A DNA stretch of 64,000 nt. It comes from Gemmatimonadota bacterium (GTDB lineage: Bacteria > Gemmatimonadota > Gemmatimonadetes > Gemmatimonadales > GWC2-71-9). Numbering within the stretch: the stretch's first letter is position 1; every line of letters starts with the position of its first letter. The notes beneath the pieces were generated by a model. The model saw only the letters and a list, made by a program, of their open reading frames with translations, was not told the origin of the DNA and did not search any database. Location: contig JBDHEI010000011.1 of assembly GCA_039591075.1 (NCBI GenBank), positions 9,933-73,932 of the forward strand. The letters are read 5' to 3'. Shown here piece by piece: positions 21,236-64,000 of this stretch. The position numbers and the translations under genes were made by a program.

Positions 21236-22483
21236 ATGTGTCGGTTCGCCATGTTGGCGGCGGCGCTGTCTGCCGCGTGCGAGTTCGGTGAGATCACCGT
21301 GCCGACCAGTGATCCCATGGTGATCGTGCAGGCGATCATGCGCCCCGACGTCGCGCGGCAGTGGCTGATTGTGGAACAGACGTTGACGGGATCGGCCGTG
21401 ATCGATCGGGAGTCGATCGTGGTCCCGGGCGCCCCGCTGCCGCTGCCGGTGTCCGGTGCGACGGTGACGGTCACCAACCGCACCGATTCCAATGACCCCT
21501 GTGGCACCACGGTCTTCACGGAAGACCCCGGCGTGCCGGACATCCCGGTGGTGGCCGGTGTGTACTGGAGTCCGGCCGGGTGTCCTACGATGCGGGCCCG
21601 GGACACCCTCCAGCTCCGCGTCGTCACACCAGGCGGTGCCGTGGTAACGGGAACTAGCGAGGTGCCCGGCGCCACCGCCTTTGTCATGCGGGTCGCCTCC
21701 ACTGTGGTTGAGGTGCCGGGTCCCCTGCTCACGCTCAACCGGGACGTCGATACCTTGACGGCCGACGCTGCGGTTATTGCGGGCCGGGCGCTGCAGCTGG
21801 AAGTGCGCCGGCCGACCGTCTCGGGATCGTCAGTTCCGGGGTTCTGGTTTCTCGTCGACTCGACCGCGATGGCGGTGCCAGGGAACCTGCCGGACATCAT
21901 CTCAGGGTTTCTGCAGGACACGTCCGGTATCCCCGACGAGTTTCCGCCGGTGTTTGCGGCCGGTCGCTATTACTTCGTGACCGTCGCGCTCGGCGACGCG
22001 CGGTACTTCGATTTCGTGCGATCGGGCAACATCCCGCCCTCCGGCCGCGGATTCGTCAACAACCTGCAAGGTGGGATGGGGGTGTTCGGGAGCCTCGTCG
22101 CGGCGACCAACGAGCTGAGGGTCGTGGGGAGGATGGACGACCGTCGCGAAGGATTCTACCGCGTAACCGGAACTCTCTTGGGTGTCCCCGTCGGCGCGAC
22201 GCTCGAGCTCTACGTCGTGACCGCGGATGCCGACTCGACAGAGCTCTCCGCGTTTGTGAGCGGCGCGTGGCTGCACGGCTCCATCGATGAGAGCGCTGAC
22301 GGGGCGTTCCGCGCTGACACGCTCGAGCTCGTGGTCGAGCAACGTGTGTCAGCCGCGGGCGATTCGGTGTCGGCGTATCTGCTGGTTGGTCCCACGTCGC
22401 CGACTACCGTGACCACGCTGACCGCATACGATGCTGAGCTTCGGGTCGTGGATAGCCTGACGGTCGAAAGAGTCCCGGGCTGA
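21236..22483 (+). CDS. DUF4249-like lipoprotein (partner of the preceding TonB receptor)
   Basis: MCRFAMLAAALSAAC lipobox. Starts 6 nt after the receptor stop. The size and position are typical of DUF4249. The family assignment comes from context and composition only. Confidence 0.6.
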   Translation: MCRFAMLAAALSAACEFGEITVPTSDPMVIVQAIMRPDVARQWLIVEQTLTGSAVIDRESIVVPGAPLPLPVSGATVTVTNRTDSNDPCGTTVFTEDPGVPDIPVVAGVYWSPAGCPTMRARDTLQLRVVTPGGAVVTGTSEVPGATAFVMRVASTVVEVPGPLLTLNRDVDTLTADAAVIAGRALQLEVRRPTVSGSSVPGFWFLVDSTAMAVPGNLPDIISGFLQDTSGIPDEFPPVFAAGRYYFVTVALGDARYFDFVRSGNIPPSGRGFVNNLQGGMGVFGSLVAATNELRVVGRMDDRREGFYRVTGTLLGVPVGATLELYVVTADADSTELSAFVSGAWLHGSIDESADGAFRADTLELVVEQRVSAAGDSVSAYLLVGPTSPTTVTTLTAYDAELRVVDSLTVERVPG

Positions 22484-48792: not shown

Positions 48793-49593
48793 ATGAGACG
48801 ACTCGGATCGTTTCACCCAAGCCCCTGTGGGGGGGTGCTGGCGTTCGCGATCGTGGTGGGTGCTCTTCCAGCCGTCGCGCAGGAACCCCGCGAGCCATTC
48901 CCACCTGGGGTTACGGATTCCGTCATCCAACGGGGCAGCGTGGTGTTCCGCGGATCCGCTCGGTGCGATGTGTGCCACGGCGCCGACGCGCACGGCACCG
49001 AAGACGGCCCGGATCTCACCGACGACAAATGGCTCCGGGGCGAGGGCACGTTCAGCGAGATCCTCGATCGTGTCTTGCACGGCATGCCACGCCGGGATGC
49101 CAAGACCGGAAAGCCCATGCCCATGCGCGGCTGGGAGCTGGTGAGCGACGATGACGCGCGTGCCGTGGCGGCGTATGTGTGGAGCCTTAGTCGAGGGCGC
49201 GGTCCCGGGGGCGCCGCGCTCACACTCTTAGGATTTCCATTTTCATGGGAGGGTGCCGCTCTCCGCCGGGTCGTCATGCCGATCGGTCATCGAGGCCTGC
49301 AACAGCTGCCGAAACAGACGCAGCTGCACAGGCGTGTCCCACTCGCGTGCACCAATCTCTCGCTTCGCGATGACGCCGCGGCTGTCGATGATGAAGCTCT
49401 CCGGGACCCCCGTAGTTTGGTAGACGCGCTCGATACGGCCGGCCGGGTCGTGCAAGACGGTGAAGGTGAGGCCGCGCTGTTGTACCCAGTCAAGCACCTT
49501 CTTGGAGCTGCTCCGGTCGATGCTCACGGCCACGATCCTGAGGCCTTGAGAGGACAGCGCCTCGTGCAGTCGCTGCATGGACGGCATCTCTAG
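48793..49593 (+). CDS. c-type cytochrome (3' end doubtful)
   Basis: Signal (MRRLGSFHPSPCGGVLAFAIVVGALPAVAQ). Heme motif CDVCH. Cytochrome-c-like ending ...ARAVAAYVWSL by about 49190. The frame then stays open to 49593, running antisense through the TlpA-like gene. Confidence 0.55.
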   Translation: MRRLGSFHPSPCGGVLAFAIVVGALPAVAQEPREPFPPGVTDSVIQRGSVVFRGSARCDVCHGADAHGTEDGPDLTDDKWLRGEGTFSEILDRVLHGMPRRDAKTGKPMPMRGWELVSDDDARAVAAYVWSLSRGRGPGGAALTLLGFPFSWEGAALRRVVMPIGHRGLQQLPKQTQLHRRVPLACTNLSLRDDAAAVDDEALRDPRSLVDALDTAGRVVQDGEGEAALLYPVKHLLGAAPVDAHGHDPEALRGQRLVQSLHGRHL

Positions 49594-49899
49594 CTCGCAC
49601 GGTTTGCACCAGGTAGCCCAGACATTCAGGAGCACCACGTAGCCCCGGAAGTCCGCCAAGCGCACGGTGTCGCCGGTCCTGACGTCACTGGCCTGGATTG
49701 CCGGCGCCTTCCGTCCGGGGACGACACCCCCTGAGTCGGTGGTGACGGAGAGCGCCGCTCCGAGCGCGAGTCCCAGAGTGAACACGATGACGGTGACCGT
49801 GATCCATCTGGCGCGGGCGGGTCTCGGGGGACCGCCTCCCTCCCTCCGCAGAGGTGAAGACTCGGAACGGTCGTGCTCGAACGTCATCGGATCTCCCAA
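49243..49899 (-). CDS. TlpA/ResA-family thiol:disulfide oxidoreductase (membrane-anchored thioredoxin fold)
   Basis: TM anchor (WITVTVIVFTLGLALGAAL). VVLLNVWATWCKPCELEMP (WCxxC active site). GVPESFIIDSRG (cis-Pro region). Confidence 0.8.
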   Translation of the reverse strand: MGDPMTFEHDRSESSPLRREGGGPPRPARARWITVTVIVFTLGLALGAALSVTTDSGGVVPGRKAPAIQASDVRTGDTVRLADFRGYVVLLNVWATWCKPCELEMPSMQRLHEALSSQGLRIVAVSIDRSSSKKVLDWVQQRGLTFTVLHDPAGRIERVYQTTGVPESFIIDSRGVIAKREIGAREWDTPVQLRLFRQLLQASMTDRHDDPAESGTLP

Positions 49900-50933: not shown

Positions 50934-53900
50934 CTAATCCGGGGGAGCCAACGCGAGGTCGTCGCGCAGGGCCTCCCGTGCGCCGATCTCCGGCCGGCGG
51001 TGTACTTGCCAGCGCCGCCACAGGAGATAGATCGCCGGAATCACGACAAGGGTGAGAACCGTTGCCGTGATCATTCCGCCCACCATCGGCGAAGCGATGC
51101 GCTTCATGACATCGGCACCGGTGCCGGCGCTCCACATAATGGGTGCCAGCCCGGCGATGATCGCTGTCACGGTCATGATCACCGGGCGCAGACGCTCGAG
51201 CGCGCCCTCGCGCACCGCGTCGGCGACATCCGCCGCAGTGCGCATCCGGCCGTCGAGGCTTCGGCGGTGGAATGCCTCGTCGAGGTAGATGAGCATCACC
51301 ACTCCGGTCTCAGCGGCGACCCCGGCGAGGGCGATGAAACCGACCCAGACCGCGACGCTCGTGTTGTAGCCTAACAGCCACAGAAACCAAATGCCGCCCA
51401 CCAGCGAGAAGGGCAGCGCGAGCATGACGATGAGGGATTCCGCAACGCCACGGAAGTTGAGGTACAACAAGAGGAAGATGATTCCTAGCGTCACGGGAAC
51501 CACGAGCTTCAGTTTCTGCGTCACCCGCTGCATGAACTCGTACTGGCCACTCCAAACGACCGTGTATCCCGTGGGAAGAGCGAGTTGTTGGGAGACGACA
51601 CGCTGCGCGTCGCGCACGTAGCTGCCGACGTCGACACCCTCGATGTCGACGAACACCGTCGTCACCGGGAACGCGTTCTCGGTCTTTACGGCCATGGGGC
51701 CCTGAAGGAACTCGATCTTCGCGATTTGCCCCAGAGGGATCTGCGTGCCTCGCATCGTCGGCACGAGCACATCTCGCAACTGCTCCACATCGCCACGCAG
51801 CTCCCGAGGGTATCGCACGTTGACCGCATAACGCTCGCGCCCCTCTACCGTCACCGCGGCATCCATGCCGCCGACTGTGGCCATGATGGCGGAATGGACG
51901 TCGCCCACGTTGAGTCCATAGCGGGCGGCGAGCTCCCGATCGATGTCGATATCCACGTAGTACCCGGACACTCCTCGTTCGGCGAACGCGCTCCGCGTGC
52001 CGGGGACGTCCTGCATGATGCGTTCGACCCGCTCCCCCAGCGCCTGGAGCGTGTCGAGATCCGGGCCGAAGATCTTGATGCCAACCGCGGTGCGGACCCC
52101 CGTCGCGAGCATGTCGATACGCCCCTTGATCGGCATGGTCCAGGCGTTTGTCACTCCTGGCATCTGTACGGCGCGGTCCATCTCAGCAATGAGCCGATTG
52201 TAACTCATCCCCTTGCGCCACTGCTCTTCGGGTCTGAGCGTGATCGTCGTCTCGAACATGTCCAGCGGTGCCGGGTCTGTGGCCGTCGTGGCGCGACCCG
52301 CCTTGCCGAGTACGGTCTCCACTTCGGGAAAGGACGCGAGGACGCTGTCCTGCCATCGCATCATCTCCCGCGCCTGCGCGATCGACACGCCCGGCACCGT
52401 GGTGGGCATGAACAGAACCGATCCTTCGTGCAGCTCTGGCATGAACTCGCTGCCCAGACGCTGCCACGGAAGCGCTGTGGCAGCGAGAACCACGACCGCC
52501 CCCGCCACCACGACCCACGGCCGGCGAACCGCGAACGCGATGATGGGGCGGTAGACCCAGCGGAGCGCTCGGTTCAGCGGATTTCGACCTTCGGGTCGGA
52601 TCTTCCCCTTGATCAGGTACCCCATGAGAACCGGGACGAGCGTGATCGAAAGAAAGGCGGAACCGGCCATGGCGAACGTCTTCGTGAACGCCAGCGGCTT
52701 GAACAGCCGTCCCTCCTGCTGCTCCAGTGAGAAGACCGGTAGGAAGCTGAACGTGATGATAAGGAGGGAGAAGAAGAGCGGTGGGCCAACCTGCTTCGCG
52801 CTCTCCAGTACGATCTCCCACTGCGACCGTCCCTCGCCGGCCGCTCGTTCGAGGTGCTTGTGCATGTTCTCGATCATCACGATCGCGGCATCCACCATCG
52901 CCCCGAGGGCAATCGCGATTCCGCCCAGGCTCATGATGTTGGCGTTCACCCCGATCATGCGCATCACGATGAACGAGATCAGGATACCCAAGGGCAGGGT
53001 AATGATCGCCACGAGCGCCGATCGCGCGTGCAGCAGGAACAGCACGGCGACCGCCGCAATGATGAGCGATTCCTCGATCAGCTTGTCCCGAAGGTTGTCG
53101 ATGGCCCGGTGGATGAGGTCGCTGCGGTCGTAGGCCGTTCGAATGTGCACCCCAGCCGGCAAGCCCTGCTGGATGGTGACGATGCGCTCCTTGACCGCCT
53201 CGATGGTCTTGAGTGCGTCGGAGCCGAATCGCATCACGACGATGCCCGCGACCGCCTCGCCGCGCCCGTTCCAGTCGGCGGCGCCGCGCCGCGGCGCGGG
53301 TCCGATCTGCACGTTCGCGACGTCCGCGACCCGGATGGGTGTCCCATCCATGGTGGCGCCGACGGTGACGTTCTCGATGTCCGGAATGCCCTTGAGATAG
53401 CCCAGGCCGCGGATCATGTACTCGCGACCGCTCATCTCGAGCACACGCGCGCCGATGTCGACGTTGTGGGCTGCGATCGCGCTGACGACTCGCATGACCG
53501 GGATGTCGAACGCCCGTAACCGCTCGGGGTTTACCTCGACCTGGTATTGCCTGACGAACCCGCCGACGCTCGCCACCTCTGAGACACCCGGCACGGAGGT
53601 GAGCTGATACCGGATGTACCAGTCCTGGAGCGTGCGAAGCTCTGCCAGGTCCAGGCTGTCCGACTCCAACACGTACTCGAAGACCCAGCCTACTCCGGTG
53701 GCATCGGGCCCCAGCGTGGGCTCGACCCCCGGGGGCAGCTGCTGGCGGATGCCGTTCAGGTACTCGAGCACCCGGGAACGCGCCCAGTAGATGTCGGTGC
53801 CGTCCTCGAAGATCACGTACACAAGGCTCAGGCCGAAGAACGAGAATGCCCGCACCACCCGCGCCCCAGGCACCTTGAGCATCTCCGACGCAATCGGGTA

Positions 53901-54090
53901 CGTGATCTGGTCTTCGACGATCTCCGGAGCTTGCTCGCTGAAGTCTGTCTGCACGATCACCTGGACGTCCGAGAGATCGGGGATGGCGTCCAGCGGAGTG
54001 GTCCGCATGGCCCACACACCAGCACCGATCAGGCCCGCGGTGGCCAGGAGCACGAGGCCGCGGTTGCGGAGCGACCACGCGATGACCGCG

Positions 54091-54098
<8 letters not shown>
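50934..54098 (-). CDS. cusA: CusA-type heavy-metal efflux RND permease (HME-RND, Cu/Ag class)
   Basis: MINAVIAWSLRNRGLVLL... About 1054 aa with the 12-TM RND layout. The TM4 signature GGIAIALGAMVDAAIVMIENMHK matches the monovalent-metal (CusA) motif rather than the CzcA DFG..VD motif. ATG 54098 overlaps the cusB stop (ATGATTAA). The track ORF extension upstream through the poly-G tract is rejected. Confidence 0.95.
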
Positions 54099-55280
<1,182 letters not shown>

Positions 55281-55284
<4 letters not shown>

Positions 55285-56561
55285 TGCGTACCTCCCAGGT
55301 CCCCGGCCACCAGCGCCTCGAGGGCGGCAACAGCGCTGTGATACTCGGCTGCCAGCCTGACGGACTCGATCTCGTATCGGTTGACGGTCATCTCGTTCTC
55401 CACCAGTGTCATGTAATCGACGCGCCCAACTCGGTATGCAGAAAGCGCCGACTCGACTGCGGCCCGCGCCTGTGGCAGCACACTGTTGGCGTACAGGTCT
55501 GCCAGGTTCCGAGCCCGCTCGGCGTCTGCCCGTAGCTCCGTGACCTCCGCGAACGTCTCGTTGTAGAGGTCCTGCTCCATCGCCTCCTCCATGGTTCGCA
55601 TCGCCGCCATCTCGCGGCGCATCGGGAGCTGCCGCGCGCCAGCCCACAGCGGAATGCTCACTCCAACCATGAGTGTGGCCATGTCGTCGAACTGCGGACG
55701 CTGCCCGTAGCCGACGGTCACCATGAACTCGGGGTAGAGTTCGCGGCGCGCCTGCCGATAGCCGGCCTCAGCGGCTTCGACTCGGGCGCGGGCAGCGTGG
55801 AGGGCGGGCCGCGACTGTACTGCCAGCGTCATGAGGGAGTCGACGGACGGGAGCGCATCGCCGGGAGCCGGCAACTCCAACGCCGGGATCGCGGTCGTCG
55901 CCTCCCGCCCAAGAAGCGCATTGAGCCGCGCTCCCATGGCCACCCGGTCCTGCTCCATCACCGTGATGTCCTCGGTCATTCGCGCCACCGTGATTTGGGC
56001 CTGGAGGACGTCCTGCTGGAGACCGCTGCCCACGGTGTACATCGTCGTGGAGACGTCGAGGAAGTTCCGCAGCAGCTCCCGGGTGTCCCGCATTACGTCC
56101 AGCGCCCGGTCCATGAAGGCGAGGCGGTTGTAGATGCCCGTCACGCGCGCCACCAAGCTCCGCTCAATCTCTTCGGCGTCGAGCGCTTCGGCAGTGGCCA
56201 GATGGCGTGCCCGCTCTTGCTTGAATCCGAGTTGCCCCGGCCATGGGAAGCGCTGCGTGAGCTGTACCGAGTTCATCGTCATCGGCTCACTGGTCCCGAA
56301 TCCGCCGACCGGGCGATTCATGAGACTGAACGACAGCTGGGGATCAGGCAGGGCGCCCGCCTGCGGCACGCGTTCGGCGGCGGCATCGGCCCTGAGCCGC
56401 GCGGCGCGCAGCATCGGGTTGGCGTCACGAACCAGGGCCACGGCGTCGGCCAACTGCAGCGTGTCGGACGACACCTGCTGTGCCGCTCCGGGATTCGTAC
56501 CGCCAAGGAGTGCGACGATCAGCGCACCCGTCACCTGCCAGGTTAGGTGCCCGGGCGCCAT
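55281..56561 (-). CDS. cusC: TolC/CusC-family outer-membrane efflux protein
   Basis: Two-repeat OEP pattern (LADAVALVRDANPMLRAARLRADAA...; LMTLAVQSRPALHAARARVEAAEAGYRQARRE...). The start is taken at ATG 56561 (GGAGAGG 4 nt upstream; signal MAPGHLTWQVTGALIVALLGGTNPGAAQQ). Alternative starts are 56606 and 56633. Confidence 0.8.
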
Positions 56562-56961
56562 CGGTCCTCTCCGCTCGTCCAGGATGCCGATCTCTGTGTT
56601 CTTCATGTCAGGCCGAGTCTCTTGGTTATCCAACGTCGTCGGTAGGTCGTCGGTGGTCTCGGTAATCTAGGCGATGTGGGCAGAACCTCGGGTCGCGTCG
56701 CTGTTCCTCGGATTCGGCCATGCGACACGGCCCGCCAGCCCTGCCCACACCCATCTCTCCTCGCCTACCATCCGCGGCTCTGTTGGGCAGACTTCGGGCC
56801 GCTCGGTGGCACGGTGGCTAACGTGTTGAAAGACCTGGAGTTGCAGTGTTCCGCCGCGGCGCGCGACTGCGCGAATTCGCGTGGCCCCACGCACTTGGTG
56901 AGGGAAATGCCCCGCCCGCTATCCGTGTGGGGAAGCTTGGAACCCTCCCACTCACCTAACG

Positions 56962-57252
56962 CTAGGGATTGGCGGCATACCACGGGGCGGGCGGGCGCTC
57001 AACGGCATAGCCTCGGGCCTCGATCGCCTGCAGGATCTCGACGGCGGTGGTCGCCCACGGGTCGAACGTGAGGACGACTCGCTCCGTGACCGGATTGACG
57101 GTCACATCTACCACCCCCGGTAGCTCACGGACGCGCTTGGCCAAAGTCGCTGCGGCCGCCGCGCACGGGAGATCGGACACCCGGAACACGACGCGGACGA
57201 CCTGCACCGCTCCTGCACGTTTGTTGGGTGACTCCCCGTGCGGCAATCTCAT
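56962..57252 (-). CDS. HMA (CopZ-like) fold protein with degenerate metal-binding motif
   Basis: VVRVVFRVSDLPCAAAAATLAKRVRELPGVVDVTVNPVTERVVLTFDP...ILQAIEARGYAVE aligns by eye with the CopZ beta-alpha-beta-beta-alpha-beta pattern. GMxCxxC is replaced by DLPCAAA, leaving a single Cys. Confidence 0.5.
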   Translation of the reverse strand: MRLPHGESPNKRAGAVQVVRVVFRVSDLPCAAAAATLAKRVRELPGVVDVTVNPVTERVVLTFDPWATTAVEILQAIEARGYAVERPPAPWYAANP

Positions 57253-57321
57253 GGCAGCCTCCAGACAACGTGAATCGCCCCGCGGACGGGACCGGGCCTT
57301 GCACCCTGACCTCTAGGACAG

Positions 57322-57336
57322 GCAACTTGGGAGCCA
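57322..57336 (-). promoter_or_regulatory. predicted sigma-54 (-24/-12) promoter reading toward the HMA-like gene and cusCBA
   Basis: The minus strand reads TGGCTCccaagTTGC: GG-N10-GC spacing is exact, with one mismatch to TGGCAC-N5-TTGC. About 70 nt upstream of ATG 57252 and divergent from the kinase/sigma-54 activator pair. Confidence 0.45.
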
Positions 57337-57389
57337 CGGTCGATGAAAGCCGACTCGTCAGTGGCGCAAGGAGTTACGCCATCTCAGAC

Positions 57390-57403
57390 CGATTCTCGAA
57401 TCG
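57390..57403. promoter_or_regulatory. perfect palindrome, candidate activator-binding site
   Basis: CGATTC-tc-GAATCG lies about 55-70 nt upstream (minus-strand sense) of the predicted -24 element. Confidence 0.25.
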
Positions 57404-57419
57404 CACGCGGCCGGGGTCG

Positions 57420-59231
57420 ATGCCCCGAGGATCGGGGGATTTCACTCGGTTGGGGTCCGCTAGCCGCGTGGCAGCGGGGGCTCGATCCCGCCTCCCACTC
57501 GGCACGAGAGTCATGCTGCTGCTCGTCGCGTTCGGTGCCATTCCACTCGCCGCGGCGATCGCGATCGGCTACACCGTGAGCCGCAGTGTAATCATGCGTC
57601 AGGCACAGAGCGCGTTGCGGGAGCTGACGCGCCAGCAGGCCGTCCATATCGCAACGGAACTCACGCGAGAACAGCTCATTCTCCGTACGATCACCGGCCA
57701 CGTCGGACCCCTTCCGGACACCGATCTCTCCGCCGCCATGGTGGCCGATCGACTGCAACAGAGCCTGCCCGAGGGTGGCGTGTTCGACGGTCTGCGGCTG
57801 GTGCGGCGTGACGGGGCGATCCTCGCGAGCGTGGCCTTGCGCAACGTCGCTCCCCACTGGCCGTCCGAAGCGCCGGCCGCGGATTGGACGGATCGCCGGG
57901 TCGTGGTGCACTGGGAGGGCGAGCGGGCCTTGGCGTACCTCCTGGCCGCACCCCTGACCTCCACAAGTGAGGTGTGGCTCGAAGGCCATGTGCGCGCGGA
58001 GGACTTCGGCCGGTTGTTCGCCATCCCGGCCCACCTTCTGGGGGATGTGGAATCGGCCGTGCTCCATGGGGACGGCAGGTTGATCCTGGTCACGCACGAG
58101 CACGCCGGACCCGATTTGCGGAAGATCCTGAGCGGGGCGAGTGGCACTGGAAGCCTCGCTGACACCACCGTGCGGCGACGTCGGATCGGTGAGGAGGAGT
58201 CGCTCGTGGCCGCATCGGAGATCGTGGGGACGCCGTGGCACTTCACTGCCGCGCTCCCCCTGCACGCGGCCCTGGCACCGCTGGCGTCGTTCCGCAACGC
58301 TGCGCTGGTGGCGGCATCGGCCCTGGTGGTGCTAATCGGGATCACCGCGGTCCTCGCCACTCGCTCGGTGAGCACGCCGCTCCGGGAGCTGGCGAGTGCG
58401 GCGCGCCGGTTCGGGCGGGGTGATCCGCCGGGACCGCTGCCGCGATCGGGGGCCGTGGAGGTGCAGCAGCTGGTGGACGCCTTTCGGCAGATGGCGGCGG
58501 ACCTCGAGCGCTCCCGGACAGAGATCGAGCAGTTGCACCAACAAGACATGGAACGCGCGCAGCAGCTCGCGACGGTGGGCGAAATGGCCAGTGGCATCGC
58601 CCACGAGGTCCGCAATCCGCTCACGGGCGTGCTTGGGGCGCTCGAATTGGCAGTGCGACACCTCGCGGCCGGTAGCCCGGCCGTCTCTCTCCTGGAGGAA
58701 GCGCAGGATCAGCTCAAGCGGATCGAGACGACGACCACCCAGCTCCTCAGGTACGCGCGTCCGCCCCAGCTCAAACGGGTGGTCGTCGACCCCAACGGGC
58801 TGGTGGAGCGCGCGGCGCGGATCGTGGAGCCCCACGCGAAGCGTGCAGGAGTGCACGTCGCGCTCGAGCTGGTTCCGCCCGGTCTGTCTGTCCGGGTCGA
58901 TCCGGAGTTGATGGTGCAGGTGCTGGTGAACCTGATGCTCAACGGGATCGACGCCTCGCGCTCCGCGGACACGCTCGCGGTGTCGGTCGTCCATCGACCC
59001 CCCGAGGTGCAGATGGGCATTCGGGATGCGGGTGCCGGTGTTCCGGCCGAGATCCAGGCGGACATCTTTCGTCCGTTCTTCACCACCAAACATCAGGGTA
59101 CCGGTCTTGGGCTGCCGATCTCGCGACAGATCGTGGAACGTCACGGCGGGCGGCTGGACCTGCGTGCCGCGCCTGAGGGTGGCGCGATCTTCGTGGTCGT
59201 GCTGCCGCAGGCGGCGGAAGAGGAGCCATAA
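57420..59231 (+). CDS. membrane sensor histidine kinase (periplasmic domain + HAMP + HisKA + HATPase_c)
   Basis: TM1 (VMLLLVAFGAIPLAAAIAIGY), a periplasmic region of about 290 aa, TM2 (AALVAASALVVLIGITAVLA). HAMP (STPLRELASAARRFGRGD). H-box ASGIAHEVRNPL, N-box VNLMLNGIDA, GTGLGLPI. The start is uncertain (ATG 57420 or 57513; track 57228). Confidence 0.8.
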   Translation: MPRGSGDFTRLGSASRVAAGARSRLPLGTRVMLLLVAFGAIPLAAAIAIGYTVSRSVIMRQAQSALRELTRQQAVHIATELTREQLILRTITGHVGPLPDTDLSAAMVADRLQQSLPEGGVFDGLRLVRRDGAILASVALRNVAPHWPSEAPAADWTDRRVVVHWEGERALAYLLAAPLTSTSEVWLEGHVRAEDFGRLFAIPAHLLGDVESAVLHGDGRLILVTHEHAGPDLRKILSGASGTGSLADTTVRRRRIGEEESLVAASEIVGTPWHFTAALPLHAALAPLASFRNAALVAASALVVLIGITAVLATRSVSTPLRELASAARRFGRGDPPGPLPRSGAVEVQQLVDAFRQMAADLERSRTEIEQLHQQDMERAQQLATVGEMASGIAHEVRNPLTGVLGALELAVRHLAAGSPAVSLLEEAQDQLKRIETTTTQLLRYARPPQLKRVVVDPNGLVERAARIVEPHAKRAGVHVALELVPPGLSVRVDPELMVQVLVNLMLNGIDASRSADTLAVSVVHRPPEVQMGIRDAGAGVPAEIQADIFRPFFTTKHQGTGLGLPISRQIVERHGGRLDLRAAPEGGAIFVVVLPQAAEEEP

Positions 59232-60607
59232 TGACAAAGCCGGTCGTACTGGTCGTCGATGACGAGAAGCTCATCCGCGTATGGCTGGAAGCGCATCTCG
59301 GTGACGCTGGGTATCAGGTGATGCTGGCTGAGAGCGCCGCCGCCGCGCGCGACCTGTTTCAGCGGACCCCGCCGGATGCCGCGTTGCTCGATCTCCGACT
59401 GCCCGACGGAAACGGCATGGATCTACTGAAGGAGTTCCTCGAGACCGACGACCAGCTCGTGGCGATCATCCTCACGGCGCATGGCGACATCAGCACGGCC
59501 GTCGAGGCCGTCAAGCTGGGCGCGTTCCACTTTCTCGAGAAGCCGCCCAAGCTGGACGATCTGCGGATCATGCTGGAGAAGGCGCTCGAAGCGCGGTCGC
59601 TCAGGCGGACGGTCTCGGGGCTCCGGCGGCAAGCGGGGTGGCAGTTCGCTGGGGTTGAGATCGTGGGGCGGTCCGACGCGATGCAGCGGATCGTGGATCT
59701 CGTGGAGAAGGTCGCGGCCAGTGAAGGCACGACGGTACTCATTCGCGGAGAGAGCGGGGTCGGGAAGGAAGTCGTGGCTAGAGCGGTTCACGCACGCAGT
59801 GCGCGTGCCGAGTATCCGTTTCTCGAGATCAACTGCACCGCGTTGCCGGAGACCTTGCTGGAGTCCGAGCTGTTCGGGCACGAGAAGGGAGCGTTCACCG
59901 ACGCCCGCGAGCGCAAACAGGGGCTGCTCGAGCTAGCCGATCGAGGAACGGTGCTGCTGGACGAAATCGGAGACCTTCCACCCGGCGCGCAGGCCAAACT
60001 GCTGCGATTCATCGAGACGAGGATCTTCAAGCGCGTCGGCGGCGTTCGGAACATCAACGTCGACGTCCGCATCGTCGCCTCGACCAATCGCGATCTCGAC
60101 GCCGCGGTGCGGGCCGGCTCGTTCCGTCTTGATTTGTTCTACCGATTGAACGTCGTGCCCGTCACGATCCCCCCGTTGCGGGAGCGCTCGGAGGACATCG
60201 AGCCGCTCGCGAAGTTCTTCCTTGAACGCATGACGAGCCAGCTTCGACGCCCGGCCCGCAGCATTTCGCGGGAGGCCCTGCGCATGCTGGAGCGGTATGC
60301 CTGGCCCGGGAACGTGCGGGAACTCCGGAACGTGATCGAGCGAGCCGTGATTCTGGAGGAAGGGTCGGAGATCCTTCCCGAGCACCTGCCCGACGAGCTG
60401 CTGCTCGGGAGTCGCGCAGCGGATCTGGGCCCCGGGTTCATGCTGCCGGCGGGAGGCGTCGACCTCGAGGAGCTGGAGAAGGATCTCTTGAAGCAGGCGC
60501 TGGAGCAGGCGCAGGGGAATAAGACTCGCGCGGCGGGTCTGCTGGGCCTCACCCGCGATACGCTGCGGTACCGGCTGGAGAAATACGAGTTGAGGGGCGG
60601 GTCGTGA
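59231..60607 (+). CDS. sigma-54-dependent response regulator (NtrC/AtoC family) with GAFTDA loop variant
   Basis: REC (VLVVDDE...LDLRLPDGNG). Walker A GESGVGKE. EKGAFTDA where GAFTGA is expected. [13 protein letters not shown] (GNKTRAAGLLGLTRDTLRYRLEKYEL). The ATG overlaps the kinase TAA by 1 nt. Confidence 0.9.
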   Translation: MTKPVVLVVDDEKLIRVWLEAHLGDAGYQVMLAESAAAARDLFQRTPPDAALLDLRLPDGNGMDLLKEFLETDDQLVAIILTAHGDISTAVEAVKLGAFHFLEKPPKLDDLRIMLEKALEARSLRRTVSGLRRQAGWQFAGVEIVGRSDAMQRIVDLVEKVAASEGTTVLIRGESGVGKEVVARAVHARSARAEYPFLEINCTALPETLLESELFGHEKGAFTDARERKQGLLELADRGTVLLDEIGDLPPGAQAKLLRFIETRIFKRVGGVRNINVDVRIVASTNRDLDAAVRAGSFRLDLFYRLNVVPVTIPPLRERSEDIEPLAKFFLERMTSQLRRPARSISREALRMLERYAWPGNVRELRNVIERAVILEEGSEILPEHLPDELLLGSRAADLGPGFMLPAGGVDLEELEKDLLKQALEQAQGNKTRAAGLLGLTRDTLRYRLEKYELRGGS

Positions 60608-61640
60608 TGTGCCGCCCGTGTCGGGTCCCCGCCCCGCGGGGCAGAGCCGAGGGGAACTGAAACGTCCAGAGGTATTCCACCAGCATCCACGCCTGCTCGT
60701 CCGTGAGGATCGGTCCCCAGTTCGGCATGCCCGTTCCCATTCCGCCCCGCTGGATCTTGCCGTGCAGCAGCGCGGGACTCGCGCCCAGCATGGACTCGGG
60801 GTCCGTGAAGTCCGCGGGCGAACGTGGCCCATGCTTGGGCGCCACTATCGAATCACGCAGGAGCGCGCGCGCCATGACGCCGTCCCCCCGGCCGAAGACG
60901 CCGTGACAGGCGGCGCAGTTGGCGGCGTACAGCCGCCGGCCCTCCGCCAGCCGGGCCGGGTCGGTGGCGTCCCGCCACAGCCGTGCCACGAGGTTCCACA
61001 CCTCACCGTCTCGCAGTTGGCCTAGAGCGGCTGTCCCCCGGAGGGCGGCCCACGCCTCGCTGGGGCCGTGGCCGCGATAGAAGTCCAGGGTCCGAAATTG
61101 GGCCGGGACCGAGTCGACCCACGATTCCGCGCGGTCCGCCCACGGTGGGTGGTTGGGTGTGACCGTTGCACGGTGCGGTGCGTCCAGGTCAATGCCCAGT
61201 CGAGCAAAGAAGGGGGACGGCGGTGCCGCTTCCAACGGAATGTCGCCGCTGGAATCGCGTACCTCGATAGTGCCGCGCATCCGCCAGTGATCCGGCCCGC
61301 ACCACCGCGTGCAGTAGAACACGTAGCTCCCCGGTCGCGAGAAAGTGATCGTCGTGTCGGTCATGCGACCCGGCAGGATGTCGACGCCCGGCCCGCTCGT
61401 TCGACCGATCGCGAATCCGTGCACCACGTCGTTCGAGGTGAGCCTGAAGCGCACCGGCTGCCCCGCCTGCACCGTCAGCACCTGCGGCTGCCAGCCACCC
61501 GCGTCAGGCATGCTGGCGTGCACTTCTAGCGTGGTTGAACCGGGACCGCCTGCAGGCACCAGGCGCAGGGTCACGATGGCGGCAGAGGGAAGGACTGCCA
61601 ACGCGACGACCAGGATGCGGGCGACGGTCTCGGGTTTCAC
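60549..61640 (-). CDS. CuA-type cupredoxin domain fused to a c-type cytochrome domain (COX2-like, membrane-anchored)
   Basis: TM anchor (ILVVALAVLPSAAIVTL). VVHGF...YCTRWCGPDHWRM gives the H...C-x3-C-x3-H-x2-M CuA ligand pattern. C-terminal CAACH heme motif with GGMGTGMPNW. The last 59 nt overlap the convergent regulator gene. Confidence 0.75.
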   Translation of the reverse strand: MKPETVARILVVALAVLPSAAIVTLRLVPAGGPGSTTLEVHASMPDAGGWQPQVLTVQAGQPVRFRLTSNDVVHGFAIGRTSGPGVDILPGRMTDTTITFSRPGSYVFYCTRWCGPDHWRMRGTIEVRDSSGDIPLEAAPPSPFFARLGIDLDAPHRATVTPNHPPWADRAESWVDSVPAQFRTLDFYRGHGPSEAWAALRGTAALGQLRDGEVWNLVARLWRDATDPARLAEGRRLYAANCAACHGVFGRGDGVMARALLRDSIVAPKHGPRSPADFTDPESMLGASPALLHGKIQRGGMGTGMPNWGPILTDEQAWMLVEYLWTFQFPSALPRGAGTRHGRHITTRPSTRISPAGTAAYRG

Positions 61641-61643
61641 CGA

Positions 61644-63020
61644 TTACCCCGCGAGCAGGATGAGGAGTCCGACGGCCAGCGCGACCATGTAGCCGATGAT
61701 CGGCGTGGCCAGTCGTGCGGGTCGGGCCGCCGGCTCGGCCCGGGCGATCCGGACGGCGGTCGCGCTGGCCCACCACGACCCTCCGGCGAGCGTCACGGTC
61801 TGGAGGGCCGGTGTCACGGTGCCGAGGAGCGGTCGCCACGACGCATTCGCAGTACCGAACAGATCCCACCCTCTGCCGAGCGGGTCGGAGAGCGCGGGCC
61901 AGAGGTAGGAGATGTTTGCCAACGCGAAGCCCAAGGTGAAGGCGATCCAGGCCGCGAGGCCGAGCGGGATCAAGGCCGCGGAGAACCGCACGAACAGCGT
62001 CCTTGGGCGGGCGGGTGAGGTGCCCCACCGCCGGCTGATCATGACGGCGAGTCCGTAGCTGCCGGGCACGGCGACGAACAGAAAGAAGAGGAACGCGGCT
62101 GCGTAGAGGAGCCACGCGGGCGTGGCGACGGCATACGCGGCTGATTTCAGCGGTCCCCAGGGGCCGAGGAGCACGGCCGTGTAGGCCACAGCGCTCCCCA
62201 ACATGATCAACGCCTTGAATGCCTCGTCCAGACCGCGTCCGCGTGGGTTGTCGAGATCGGTGCCGAAGGGGCGGATGTTCACCGCCACGTTGTCGTACGG
62301 GCACGTCCGCAAGCACTCGAGACACAGGCCGCAGTAGGTGTTCCTCGTCAGTGCGCCCGGATACACCAGCCACGGGCAGCCCGCGCCGGCAGCGCAGCCG
62401 ACATAGCAGGTCTTCGGCGAGTGGCTAGCGCAGACCGTCTTGTCCCGCACGCGCAACTCGACGGGTGCCAGCTGGGAGTAGAGTCCGACGAATCCGCCGA
62501 CGGGGCAGAGATACCGGCAGAAGGTGCGGCGCTCGTAGACCAGGGCGAGGCCCACGGCAACCAGCAGGAGCGCGAGCAGGACGAGGGCGGTGACGCGTGG
62601 CTGTGTGAGCACGACCGTGCTGGACACCGCCAGGCCGGCGAACGCCAGATTTTGCGGCCACATGTTCCGCAGGCGGGCCGGCCAGCGCCGGCCGAGGCCG
62701 ACCCCGTGATCGGTGGGACGCAACACGCCGCCGCGCTGGAGCCAGTCGCCGGGAGCGGGAATCGGGCAGACGCTACACCAGGCGCGCCCGAAGAGCGGCA
62801 CGGCGAGCAGGATGAGCACGGTCCACCACCCGATCCACACGGCCACGATCCCGAAGTTTCGGCTGCCGACGGGGGAGCCGAGGAGTCCCGTCGCAATCGC
62901 GAGGAGATATCCACCGAGCAGAACGGAAACCGTGATGAGCTGTGGCCACCGGCTCGCCAGCAGACGGCGCACGGGGGAGAGCGCGGTCAAATCCGTGCCC
63001 CTCACCGGCGCACTGCCCAC
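61644..63020 (-). CDS. NapH/CcoG-like polytopic membrane protein with 4Fe-4S ferredoxin motifs
   Basis: CxxCP-type motifs in or near TM segments (AWCSVCPIP, FCRYLCPVGG). Ferredoxin cluster motifs (CASHSPKTCYVGCAAGAGCPW; CGLCLECLRTCPYDN). About 8 TM helices. An alternative GTG start at 63005 would give a GTGA overlap with the upstream stop. Confidence 0.75.
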   Translation of the reverse strand: MGSAPVRGTDLTALSPVRRLLASRWPQLITVSVLLGGYLLAIATGLLGSPVGSRNFGIVAVWIGWWTVLILLAVPLFGRAWCSVCPIPAPGDWLQRGGVLRPTDHGVGLGRRWPARLRNMWPQNLAFAGLAVSSTVVLTQPRVTALVLLALLLVAVGLALVYERRTFCRYLCPVGGFVGLYSQLAPVELRVRDKTVCASHSPKTCYVGCAAGAGCPWLVYPGALTRNTYCGLCLECLRTCPYDNVAVNIRPFGTDLDNPRGRGLDEAFKALIMLGSAVAYTAVLLGPWGPLKSAAYAVATPAWLLYAAAFLFFLFVAVPGSYGLAVMISRRWGTSPARPRTLFVRFSAALIPLGLAAWIAFTLGFALANISYLWPALSDPLGRGWDLFGTANASWRPLLGTVTPALQTVTLAGGSWWASATAVRIARAEPAARPARLATPIIGYMVALAVGLLILLAG

Positions 63021-63439
63021 ACGGCCCCGCTTGCCGCGAATAGCAGGAGTGCCAGCGCTCCTTGGACCAGCCGGCCTTCACCCACCGTGAGCGTGCCGAC
63101 GATGAAGGGGTGTAGAGGGCCACAGGTGACGGAACACCGGAGTCGAAACGTGCCCTCGCGATCGGCAACGAACGAAAGGCGGCCGGGGCGCCCGGGTTCC
63201 GCCGTCACCGCGACGCCGTATCCGTCCACGTGCAGGCCGTGGACCACGTCCGTGGCGACGAGATCGATCGTGACCCGGTCGCCTCTGGCGACCCGGATAC
63301 GGGCCGGACGGAACGCGTCCGCGCTGGCTTCGACCGTGAAGTGCCGTTCGCCCCCCGTGGGAGCAGGTCGCGGCATGGGAATGAGCCAGGCGGCCAGACC
63401 TGCCACTCCCAGGCCGAGACTCCACACGGAGATCCGCAT
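63002..63439 (-). CDS. membrane-anchored cupredoxin-like protein (CuA-like ligand set with Ile in place of Met)
   Basis: Signal/anchor at the N-terminus and a second TM at the C-terminus. VVHGLHV...CSVTCGPLHPFI gives H...C-x3-C-x3-H-x2-I. Confidence 0.65.
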   Translation of the reverse strand: MRISVWSLGLGVAGLAAWLIPMPRPAPTGGERHFTVEASADAFRPARIRVARGDRVTIDLVATDVVHGLHVDGYGVAVTAEPGRPGRLSFVADREGTFRLRCSVTCGPLHPFIVGTLTVGEGRLVQGALALLLFAASGAVWAVRR

Positions 63440-63445
63440 CGTCGC

Positions 63446-63925
63446 TCAGTGATTGGGCGGGGTCAGGACCCCACCGCGGAGTTGAATCTTGCTCGTTCCC
63501 GGTCCGTACCGGCTGTACTCCGCATGGATGCGCGTCAGGATCTCGTTGGGTTCCTTGCCATCCCGCATCATCCGCATCACGTCACGCGTGATGTCGACGC
63601 AGATCCCTCAGCCGAAGGCGTGGTCGTCGTAGACCACGCTCCCGTCCTCGCGGAACTCCTTGACGTAGCAGGCCAGGTTGCTGGTGTGTTCCATCGCGCC
63701 GCAGCCACAGTAGCAGGGAATGCGGTCGAGGACCTCCGGATTGGCGACGGCGAAGCGGTACGCCTCCTGCACGACGGTCGGCGCCCCACGCGCGAACGCT
63801 GGCAGAGCCGAAACGGGAGCGAGCGACACGGGCGAAGCCCCCTCCTCACCGCTGCAAGCAGCCGCGCCGATGAGCGTCGCCGCCAGGATCGGCATTCGCA
63901 GGAGATCCCACCGCGGAGTGATCAT
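63446..63925 (-). CDS. PCYCGC-motif lipoprotein interrupted by an in-frame TGA at 63608-63610 (candidate selenocysteine codon; alternatively a pseudogene)
   Basis: The track ORF 63608..63925 (lipobox GAAAC; IPCYCGCGAMEHTSNLAC...YDDHAFG) stops at TGA. My translation continues in the same frame as GICVDITRDVMRMMRDGKEPNEILTRIHAEYSRYGPGTSKIQLRGGVLTPPNH and stops at 63446. Total 159 codons. Confidence 0.55.
63575..63593 (-). other. SECIS-like stem-loop 14 nt downstream of the in-frame UGA
   Basis: The mRNA sense reads CAUCACG-CGUGA-CGUGAUG: a perfect 7-bp stem with a 5-nt loop containing GU. It can be extended by 3 more pairs with a bulged A. Confidence 0.45.
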
Positions 63926-64000
63926 GGTTTCGTCCTTCGCTTCGAATCGTCATTCGGCTTCTCCGCGCCCCAGCGCGCGGAGGGATCGGCCGACGCAGGG

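Follow-up and report, generated by a model that had tools for sequence, protein, structure and literature searches.

Does an in-frame TGA end a lipoprotein gene of a Gemmatimonadota bacterium, or is it read as selenocysteine (Sec)? The question is raised by a 64,000-nucleotide (64-kb) stretch of contig JBDHEI010000011.1 (assembly GCA_039591075.1), which we call the window and whose positions are used throughout. On the minus strand of the window lies a gene of the PCYCGC (or CYCXC) family in which an open reading frame (ORF) of 105 codons meets a TGA and the same frame then runs on. The original prediction, made from the bare sequence, took this TGA for a Sec codon served by a hairpin downstream, that is, a Sec insertion sequence (SECIS) element. 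We find that the TGA is most likely a genuine Sec codon and the gene a real selenoprotein gene; on sequence evidence, we put the probability of this at roughly 0.87. The argument refers to the following parts of the gene:

63446..63925, minus strand: the complete predicted selenoprotein gene, encoding a PCYCGC/CYCXC-family prelipoprotein (105 codons, UGA for Sec and 53 codons, 159 in all, then a stop)
63854..63925, minus strand: signal peptide and lipobox (…LIGAAA-C24), with Cys24 as the predicted lipidated residue
63701..63715, minus strand: C71-Y-C73-G-C75, the motif that names the family, in columns invariant in 61-62 homologues
63608..63610, minus strand: predicted Sec codon 106, an in-frame UGA aligned to the invariant Cys106 of the Cys homologues
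63599..63610, minus strand: U106-G-I-C109 (UxxC motif), with C106 and C109 invariant, at a helix N-terminus in the model of a Cys homologue
63575..63593, minus strand: putative SECIS core hairpin CAUCACG-CGUGA-CGUGAUG, starting 14 nt 3' of the UGA
63446..63448, minus strand: predicted true stop codon, a TGA 6 nt ahead of the ATG of the next gene

The upstream ORF starts with the ATG at 63925 and its 105 sense codons end in VVYDDHAFG (…FREDGSVVYDDHAFG), with the TGA at 63610-63608 as the next codon. Past this TGA, 53 sense codons in the same frame (GICVDITRDVMRMMRDGKEPNEILTRIHAEYSRYGPGTSKIQLRGGVLTPPNH) lead up to a second TGA at 63448-63446, and the read-through product has 159 residues when the first TGA is counted as one. 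Both codon counts and the total are those of the original prediction, which had put 7 nt between this stop and the next gene; the spacer to the ATG at 63439 is in fact 6 nt (GCGACG). The GC contents of the three codon positions are 0.60/0.45/0.81 past the TGA versus 0.68/0.52/0.85 ahead of it, which is a coding pattern, and past the TGA this pattern disappears in the other two phases. Could the whole genome have reassigned TGA? Among the ORFs called in the window, 28 stop at TGA, 14 at TAG and 7 at TAA. Since TGA is thus the commonest ordinary stop, there is no genome-wide reassignment, in agreement with what had been noted before. A scan of the window based on GC at third codon positions gave no second TGA-interrupted candidate selenoprotein, its hits being mostly antisense-frame artefacts.

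If the UGA encodes Sec, the codons on both sides of it should belong to one protein family. Translated with Cys at the UGA, the product scores 97.7 bits against the Pfam family PF13798 (PCYCGC), whose cut-off is 25 bits; residues 36-140 align to positions 38-144 of the 153-position profile, and the motif P70-C-Y-C-G-C75 is present. The truncated 105-codon ORF reaches 67 bits, so the 53 downstream codons add ~30 bits. Searching 5.8 billion proteins gave 436 relatives, of which the best are about 145-160 aa long and 50-63% identical to the read-through product. The TGA column holds Cys in 32/32 and in 61/61 aligned homologues, and it lies inside an invariant block, D100-x-H102-A-x-G-C106-x-x-C109-V-D-I. 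A Cys in homologues opposite the UGA is the standard Sec/Cys-pair criterion. The proposal that the TGA replaces a Cys of a C-x-x-C pair following D-x-H is therefore borne out in every aligned homologue, and the alignment to PF13798 identifies the downstream frame as the homologous part of the PCYCGC domain. The 53-codon extension carries all of the family-invariant residues expected there (C109, V110, D111, I112, D115 and G141), and U106-G-I-C109 is the sole CxxC pair of the domain.

The other end of the protein is that of a lipoprotein. Its N-terminus, MITPRWDLLRMPILAATLIGAAA-C24, carries the Cys that at least 90% of homologues share, and no twin-arginine motif is visible in the signal peptide sequence. 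With Cys24 as the predicted lipidated residue, the mature protein would be extracytoplasmic. In an AlphaFold2 model of the Cys homologue P0002 (pLDDT 89.8), C106-x-x-C109 sits at the N-terminus of a helix (residues 107-121). Such a placement of CxxC is a geometry typical of redox-active or metal-binding motifs. In published work, PCYCGC proteins are lipoproteins whose lipobox Cys is conserved (PMC13068155).

Is the TGA peculiar to this gene? We screened 185,579 species genomes with the DNA pattern D-x-H-A-x-G-TGA-x-x-C-V-D-I, for which we estimate fewer than about 1 match by chance. The screen returned 29 loci, with hits in 29 species genomes. All are PCYCGC genes that have the TGA at this column and 39-80 conserved in-frame codons after it. 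The hosts are Anaerolineae, Caldilineae, Ardenticatenales and other Chloroflexota, together with two Gemmatimonadota and two Bacillota. Together with the window gene, these loci make up the set of 30 Sec forms used below. Relatives had been proposed as a check on decay, and instead of assorted stops or frameshifts they show the TGA at one and the same column in 29 species. The closest relatives of the window gene are the two Gemmatimonadota loci, L008 and L009, one at 68% and the other at 55% protein identity; the sigma-54 regulator flanking these loci is 82-88% identical to that of the window, a likeness that locates the window within or close to this phylum.

More Sec forms may be hidden in the databases. 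An exhaustive profile search gave 1,867 family representatives at 50% identity, and at least 11 of the best 150 end exactly at …H-A/S-x-G. Going by these C-termini, the result suggests further unrecognised candidates, and many unannotated Sec forms. GenBank orthologues of Sec form are deposited as truncated 'hypothetical protein' entries of 103-106 aa (L008, NIM50956.1; L025, UCC87453.1; L029, NOZ26707.1; L031, MBI5649312.1), and the truncated calls, in the window as in GenBank orthologues, are ~95-106 aa long. In a rough neighbour-joining tree of 90 residues, eight pure-Sec groups are interleaved with Cys forms, and the nearest neighbour of a Sec form is another Sec form in 25/28 cases; a tree of 90 residues cannot settle whether Sec forms had one origin with reversions or several origins. 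Two Sec-form copies (L017 and L021), both followed by the operon, lie on separate contigs of a single Caldilineales metagenome-assembled genome, mag.17; they reflect either duplication into paralogues or a bin of mixed strains.

What would direct Sec insertion at this codon? The hairpin that starts 14 nt past the UGA has seven perfect pairs and a 5-nt loop, exactly as first described; the loop starts 21 nt past the UGA and the minimum free energy (MFE) is -7.7 kcal/mol. Published rules for bacterial SECIS (bSECIS) elements comprise a loop of 3-9 nt, a stem of 4-16 bp, a UGA-to-loop distance of 16-37 nt, an MFE <= -7.5 kcal/mol, and a G at loop position 1 or 2 with G or U next after it (PMC13188914). 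The window hairpin passes all of these rules (5 nt, 7 bp, 21 nt, -7.7 kcal/mol and C-G-U), and its position is, as had been supposed, compatible with a bacterial SECIS. A permissive Rfam scan of 63300-64000 found no matching model, only one meaningless match to a long non-coding RNA. The hairpin resembles the elements of the E. coli fdhF type in that it lies within the ORF, directly 3' of the UGA, and has a small apical loop in which G is followed by U or G. It differs from them in being unrelated in sequence, with no bulged U evident and no matching Rfam model.

If the hairpin acts as RNA, its nucleotides should be constrained where the upstream codon is UGA and free where it encodes Cys. A stretch of 17 nt, ATCACGCG[T/G]GACGTGAT, is almost invariant in the 30 Sec forms from three phyla, and the window hairpin is a perfect match to the consensus of the 29 other species. 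Codons 6-10 past the UGA are nearly frozen (ATC 29/30, ACG 29/30, CGT/CGG 30/30, GAC 30/30, GTG 28/30); at the adjoining Cys, Val and Asp codons, all synonyms are used. In the stem alignment, 98.1% of cells are paired and two pairs are changed on both sides: L030 reads ATAACG…CGTTAT (C-G to A-U), and L011 reads ATCGCG…CGCGAT (A-U to G-C), a change that turns the peptide into IARDAI and keeps the stem. The GU-containing loop of the original prediction is present in 24/30 Sec forms, that of the window among them (CGUGA); as a general description it does not hold, since the loop is CGGGA in 6/30.

As a control, we examined 120 Cys-form genes from metagenomes, 116 of them distinct. Their codons at the hairpin positions vary (ACG 29/116, GAC 45/116, GTG 33/116). 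The full 7-bp stem is found in 27/30 Sec forms versus 14/116 Cys forms (Fisher p = 5e-16), and the median hairpin MFE is -7.7 kcal/mol in the former versus -0.9 kcal/mol in the latter. The loop codon is mostly Gln in Cys forms (CAG 73/116, CAG or CAA 89/116), whereas Sec forms fix Arg (CGK), a switch that places a G at loop position 2, where Cys forms have A. Four Cys forms encode the peptide DITRDVM; three of these use other codons and pair at 5/7 positions, and the fourth is L127. These comparisons show selection on the hairpin at the RNA level, in Sec forms only. L127 itself, a Cys form on a metagenome contig (C-S-T-C-V-D-I-T-R-D-V-M), has the full 7-bp hairpin with a CGAGA loop and clusters with the Sec forms L009, L016 and L025. 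A recent reversion from Sec to Cys that left a relic SECIS is the probable explanation.

How firmly can the TGA be read as Sec? Several points weigh against doing so. About 7% of the TGA trinucleotides in this window of 66% GC precede a hairpin that passes the same rules, and the folding energy of the hairpin region is ordinary (z = -0.78); for these two reasons the hairpin alone is weak evidence. The finding as a whole stands far above chance because the TGA aligns to Cys, recurs in 29 other species and is followed by a hairpin conserved specifically in Sec forms. No selA, selB, selD or tRNA-Sec was found in ~68 kb (the 64-kb window and an extra 3.6 kb), with ARAGORN run on the window and 30 loci and Pfam on 30 further window ORFs; this null result is uninformative because it covers ~68 kb of the genome. 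No paper reporting Sec use by Gemmatimonadota turned up in the literature. Against NF041379, the NCBIfam model for the selenoprotein relatives discussed below, the product scores 71 bits, under the 90-bit cut-off, and the assignment of a function (copper/redox maturation) derives from gene context and a weak CcmH-like similarity. We infer that the organism has SelB and the other components of Sec decoding.

What else could the TGA be? The main residual rival, which we consider unlikely, is that it works as a stop in a lineage that has lost or lacks Sec decoding. Only the 105-residue lipoprotein would then be made, perhaps with trace near-cognate read-through, and the hairpin would be a relic; the truncated product would have the CYCGC cluster without the UxxC helix. 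This would fit with Sec machinery that is not demonstrable in ~68 kb, with the orthologues of roughly 100 aa given by gene callers and GenBank, and with the precedent of L127, a Cys form, that relic hairpins can persist. It leaves unexplained why 53 downstream codons should have kept a coding GC pattern and the family-invariant residues without acquiring a stop or a frameshift, and why the SECIS should match the 29-species consensus perfectly. L008 and L009, moreover, keep the arrangement at 55-68% protein identity, and its retention over such distances in Gemmatimonadota points to long-term selection on the downstream part. Alternatively, the gene could be decaying, with a recent nonsense change of a Cys codon. 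A single base separates TGC or TGT from TGA, and the called ORF is indeed truncated. Decay is nevertheless very improbable, and we regard it as effectively already refuted: the same TGA column occurs in 30 species of three phyla, at least 11 more representatives end at …H-A/S-x-G, the downstream frame is intact, synonymous-site conservation and covariation are specific to Sec forms, and the conserved operon is intact as well.

Two further possibilities are the least probable of all. An error of sequencing or assembly, with TGC or TGG as the true codon, has in its favour only the general possibility of such errors, and we give it hardly any credence. The 480-nt read-through gene, TGA included, is identical in four other JGI metagenome assemblies (on contigs that encode the truncated product P0001), one of which has 13 substitutions elsewhere on the matching contig and another an indel in the gene that follows. 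Agreement thus extends over five independent assemblies, which come from different samples and include distinguishable strains, and this excludes a sequencing error; the SECIS-type codon choices, absent from Cys forms, are present. Finally, the hairpin might be a by-product of the conserved peptide D-I-T-R-D-V-M (ATCAC…GTGAT) with no function as RNA, an explanation to which we attach just as little weight. Cys forms also conserve the peptide motif, and codon choice allows the full stem in 12% of them. Yet of the four Cys forms encoding DITRDVM, three pair at only 5/7 positions and the remaining one, L127, groups with Sec forms; the loop codon is always Arg (CGK) in Sec forms and mostly Gln (CAG) in Cys forms; and through two compensatory changes Sec forms have kept the stem, in L011 at the price of an altered peptide (IARDAI). 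We therefore retain the reading of the TGA as a Sec codon.

Is this a new kind of selenoprotein? The original prediction was not aware of any selenoprotein form of the PCYCGC family. One is on record: OS_HP4, or CYCXC, a PF13798 selenoprotein form with a UxxC motif and one Sec, is listed in PMC13188914 and PMC9312934. Both credit it to Zhang & Gladyshev 2007, the Olavius symbiont study (PMC1976440), and a marine deltaproteobacterial symbiont is given as the source of the original OS_HP4. Within the main text of PMC1976440 and of the 2008 paper, OS_HP4 is absent, and it appears only in the two reviews. NCBIfam also holds a model for it, NF041379 (OS_HP4_CYCXC, 'CYCXC family (seleno)protein', of equivalog type), to which residues 51-137 of the product align over profile positions 13-89 of 90, spanning the Sec position. 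Nine relatives of the window's clade, Sec and Cys forms alike, score 47-77 bits against this model. Judged by these scores, the gene is homologous to the NF041379 family and lies outside the equivalog as NCBI delimits it. The window gene is a further member of an already described selenoprotein family, not a new selenoprotein family.

How does it compare with the known members? It shares with OS_HP4/CYCXC the Pfam family, the CYC-x-C cluster, a single Sec as the first residue of UxxC, and Cys homologues at that column. Going by the listed UxxC motif, the Sec column of OS_HP4 is presumably the column of U106. The clade of the window gene differs from OS_HP4 in its length of ~145-160 aa, its N-terminal lipoprotein signal, its operon with cupredoxin, Fer4_5 and cytochrome c genes, and its distribution over Chloroflexota and Gemmatimonadota. 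With PF13798 Cys forms such as Parageobacillus AOT13_14730 (PMC13068155), it has in common the domain, the lipobox Cys and six further Cys positions, and the closest of these Cys forms have the same four-gene operon. Here, unlike in the Cys forms, one conserved Cys is encoded by UGA and a SECIS is embedded in the coding sequence. The neighbour of AOT13_14730 is a gene for an Fe3+ binding protein (PMC13068155), unlike the operon of the window.

How would the protein be made, and what might it do? We propose that the 19-nt hairpin 14 nt past the UGA (7-bp stem, loop C-G-U-G-A) acts as a bacterial SECIS that binds SelB·GTP·Sec-tRNA(Sec) and places it at the ribosomal A site, where the UGA would be read as Sec. 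Translation would then run for 53 codons to the real stop at 63448-63446. Processing of the resulting 159-residue prelipoprotein at Cys24 would leave it anchored to the cytoplasmic membrane, on the outer side. At a helix N-terminus, U106-x-x-C109 would lie beside a cluster formed by C71-Y-C-G-C75, H80, C86, D100 and H102. From gene context, the protein would most plausibly provide a selenol/thiol redox or Cu(I)-handling step for two CuA cupredoxins and a cytochrome c encoded downstream. Handling of Cu(I), or keeping the Cys pairs of these proteins reduced, is suggested because an exported lipoprotein that does not use the twin-arginine translocation (Tat) system, with six Cys/Sec and two His, heads a CuA/cytochrome c operon. 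By analogy, we hypothesise a role like that of the Sco, TlpA or CcmH maturation factors, and we make no claim of membership in any of these families.

Structure and profile comparisons give one lead in the same direction. CcmH (PF03918) ranks first in three independent comparisons, all of them weak and none significant: a Pfam match with E = 0.22, a profile search of PDB that gives 2kw0 at E = 0.032, and Foldseek, where 2hl7 and 2kw0 take ranks 1-2 with E = 1.1-2.8 (for 2kw0, 34 columns with a root-mean-square deviation of 1.4 Å and 32% identity). CcmH (PDB 2hl7, 2kw0) is the periplasmic thiol:disulfide oxidoreductase of cytochrome c maturation. The likeness concerns the C-terminal half, with a U/CxxC at a helix start, two helices after it and a …G-K-x-x-x-E-I…Y-G pattern, and both proteins are extracytoplasmic and have ties to redox-protein maturation. 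Nothing in CcmH corresponds to the N-terminal CYCGC/His half. The matches, not being significant, are no evidence of membership among the CcmH-type oxidoreductases and serve as a lead to how the protein may work. PDB holds no significant match, either by sequence or by fold. Ferredoxin matches in PDB (E = 0.05-0.24) were dismissed as noise from Cys spacing, ferredoxins being a poor fit to a lipoprotein exported by the general secretory (non-Tat) pathway. We advance only tentatively the idea that the Sec-containing PCYCGC lipoproteins of Chloroflexota and Gemmatimonadota might be a selenium-dependent CcmH/Sco-like maturation factor, a selenol-thiol reductase or a Cu(I) donor, dedicated to a conserved extracytoplasmic CuA/Fe-S/cytochrome c electron-transfer module.

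Which genes make up this module? The PCYCGC gene had been said to head a copper/redox operon. It does so, and the order of the four genes is conserved at loci of Sec and Cys forms alike. The three genes that follow it are:

63002..63439, minus strand: gene 2, a 145-aa CuA-like cupredoxin (COX2/Cupredoxin_1) with C-S-V-T-C-G-P-L-H, assigned with Pfam and NCBIfam
61644..63020, minus strand: gene 3, a 458-aa polytopic Fer4_5 (NapH/MauN/NosR-like) iron-sulfur membrane protein, Pfam PF12801
60549..61640, minus strand: gene 4, a 363-aa fusion of a CuA cupredoxin (C-T-R-W-C-G-P-D-H-W-R-M) and a c-type cytochrome (CAACH), Pfam COX2 and Cytochrom_C

All three fall under the NCBIfam cut-offs, and the NapH/NosR matches of gene 3 are weak and likewise under cut-off. 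The ligand pattern of the cupredoxins is taken to be the CuA pattern of COX2. In the 145-aa cupredoxin, Ile occupies the position of the Met ligand. A strain variant of this gene (L003, 3874-4284) has an indel and encodes 136 aa versus the 145 aa of window 63002-63439; its PCYCGC gene is identical. The CuA-cytochrome c ORF (minus strand) and the ORF of the sigma-54 regulator (plus strand) converge, and their 3' ends overlap by 59 nt (60549-60607). The true stop of the former may differ, its C-terminal tail lying outside the homologue alignments.

The four-gene order is kept in nearly all Sec-form loci. At Cys-form loci, the cupredoxin gene comes next in 74/89 cases and Fer4_5 after it in 35/43. 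As the operon is the same at both kinds of loci, the two forms are orthologues that belong to a single system. The downstream module (60549-63439 in the window; L005-L033 and L034-L153) is thus conserved with both Sec and Cys forms, in Chloroflexota and Gemmatimonadota, and uncharacterised.

Around the operon lies a copper-homeostasis island (window 50934-60607 and L001 3-1754):

59231-60607, plus strand: sigma-54 response regulator
57228-59231, plus strand: HAMP histidine kinase, forming a two-component pair with the sigma-54 regulator
56962-57252, minus strand: CopZ-like HMA protein
55281-56633, minus strand: outer-membrane efflux protein of a CusCBA-type efflux system
50934-54347, minus strand: CusA-like pump of the resistance-nodulation-division (RND) type, of the same CusCBA-type system
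just past the window end (L001 3-1754): CopA-like P-type ATPase

A sigma-54-type -24/-12 box, TGGCTCCCAAGTTGC, lies at 57322-57336 on the minus strand, ~70 nt upstream of the HMA/CopZ-like gene, with one mismatch to TGGCAC-N5-TTGC. It would fit control by the adjacent sigma-54 regulator and is only a lead, such matches being no more frequent in L001 than expected by chance. Upstream of the PCYCGC gene, there is no sigma-54 promoter within two mismatches. Elsewhere in the window, a tRNA-Gly (CCC) at 21353-21443 on the minus strand is the only tRNA, and a 218-aa protein of the AhpC/TSA-Redoxin family (49243-49899, minus strand) is encoded by an uninterrupted ORF; this family has Sec forms elsewhere.

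What does the gene add to the picture of its family and its phylum? Current understanding of selenoproteins is left unchanged by the finding. For annotation, the product is probably a protein of ~159 aa with Sec in a likely active site, versus a truncated hypothetical protein, and the cut-off of NF041379 makes the NCBI (seleno)protein model miss the lipoprotein clade of the window. The locus also offers an uncommonly clear example from nature of a SECIS lying within coding sequence, with frozen codons and a Gln-to-Arg switch only where the upstream codon is UGA. If the Sec reading is true, the window would document Sec decoding in Gemmatimonadota. The conserved CuA/Fe-S/cytochrome c operon provides a testable functional lead for PF13798, a family without an assigned function.

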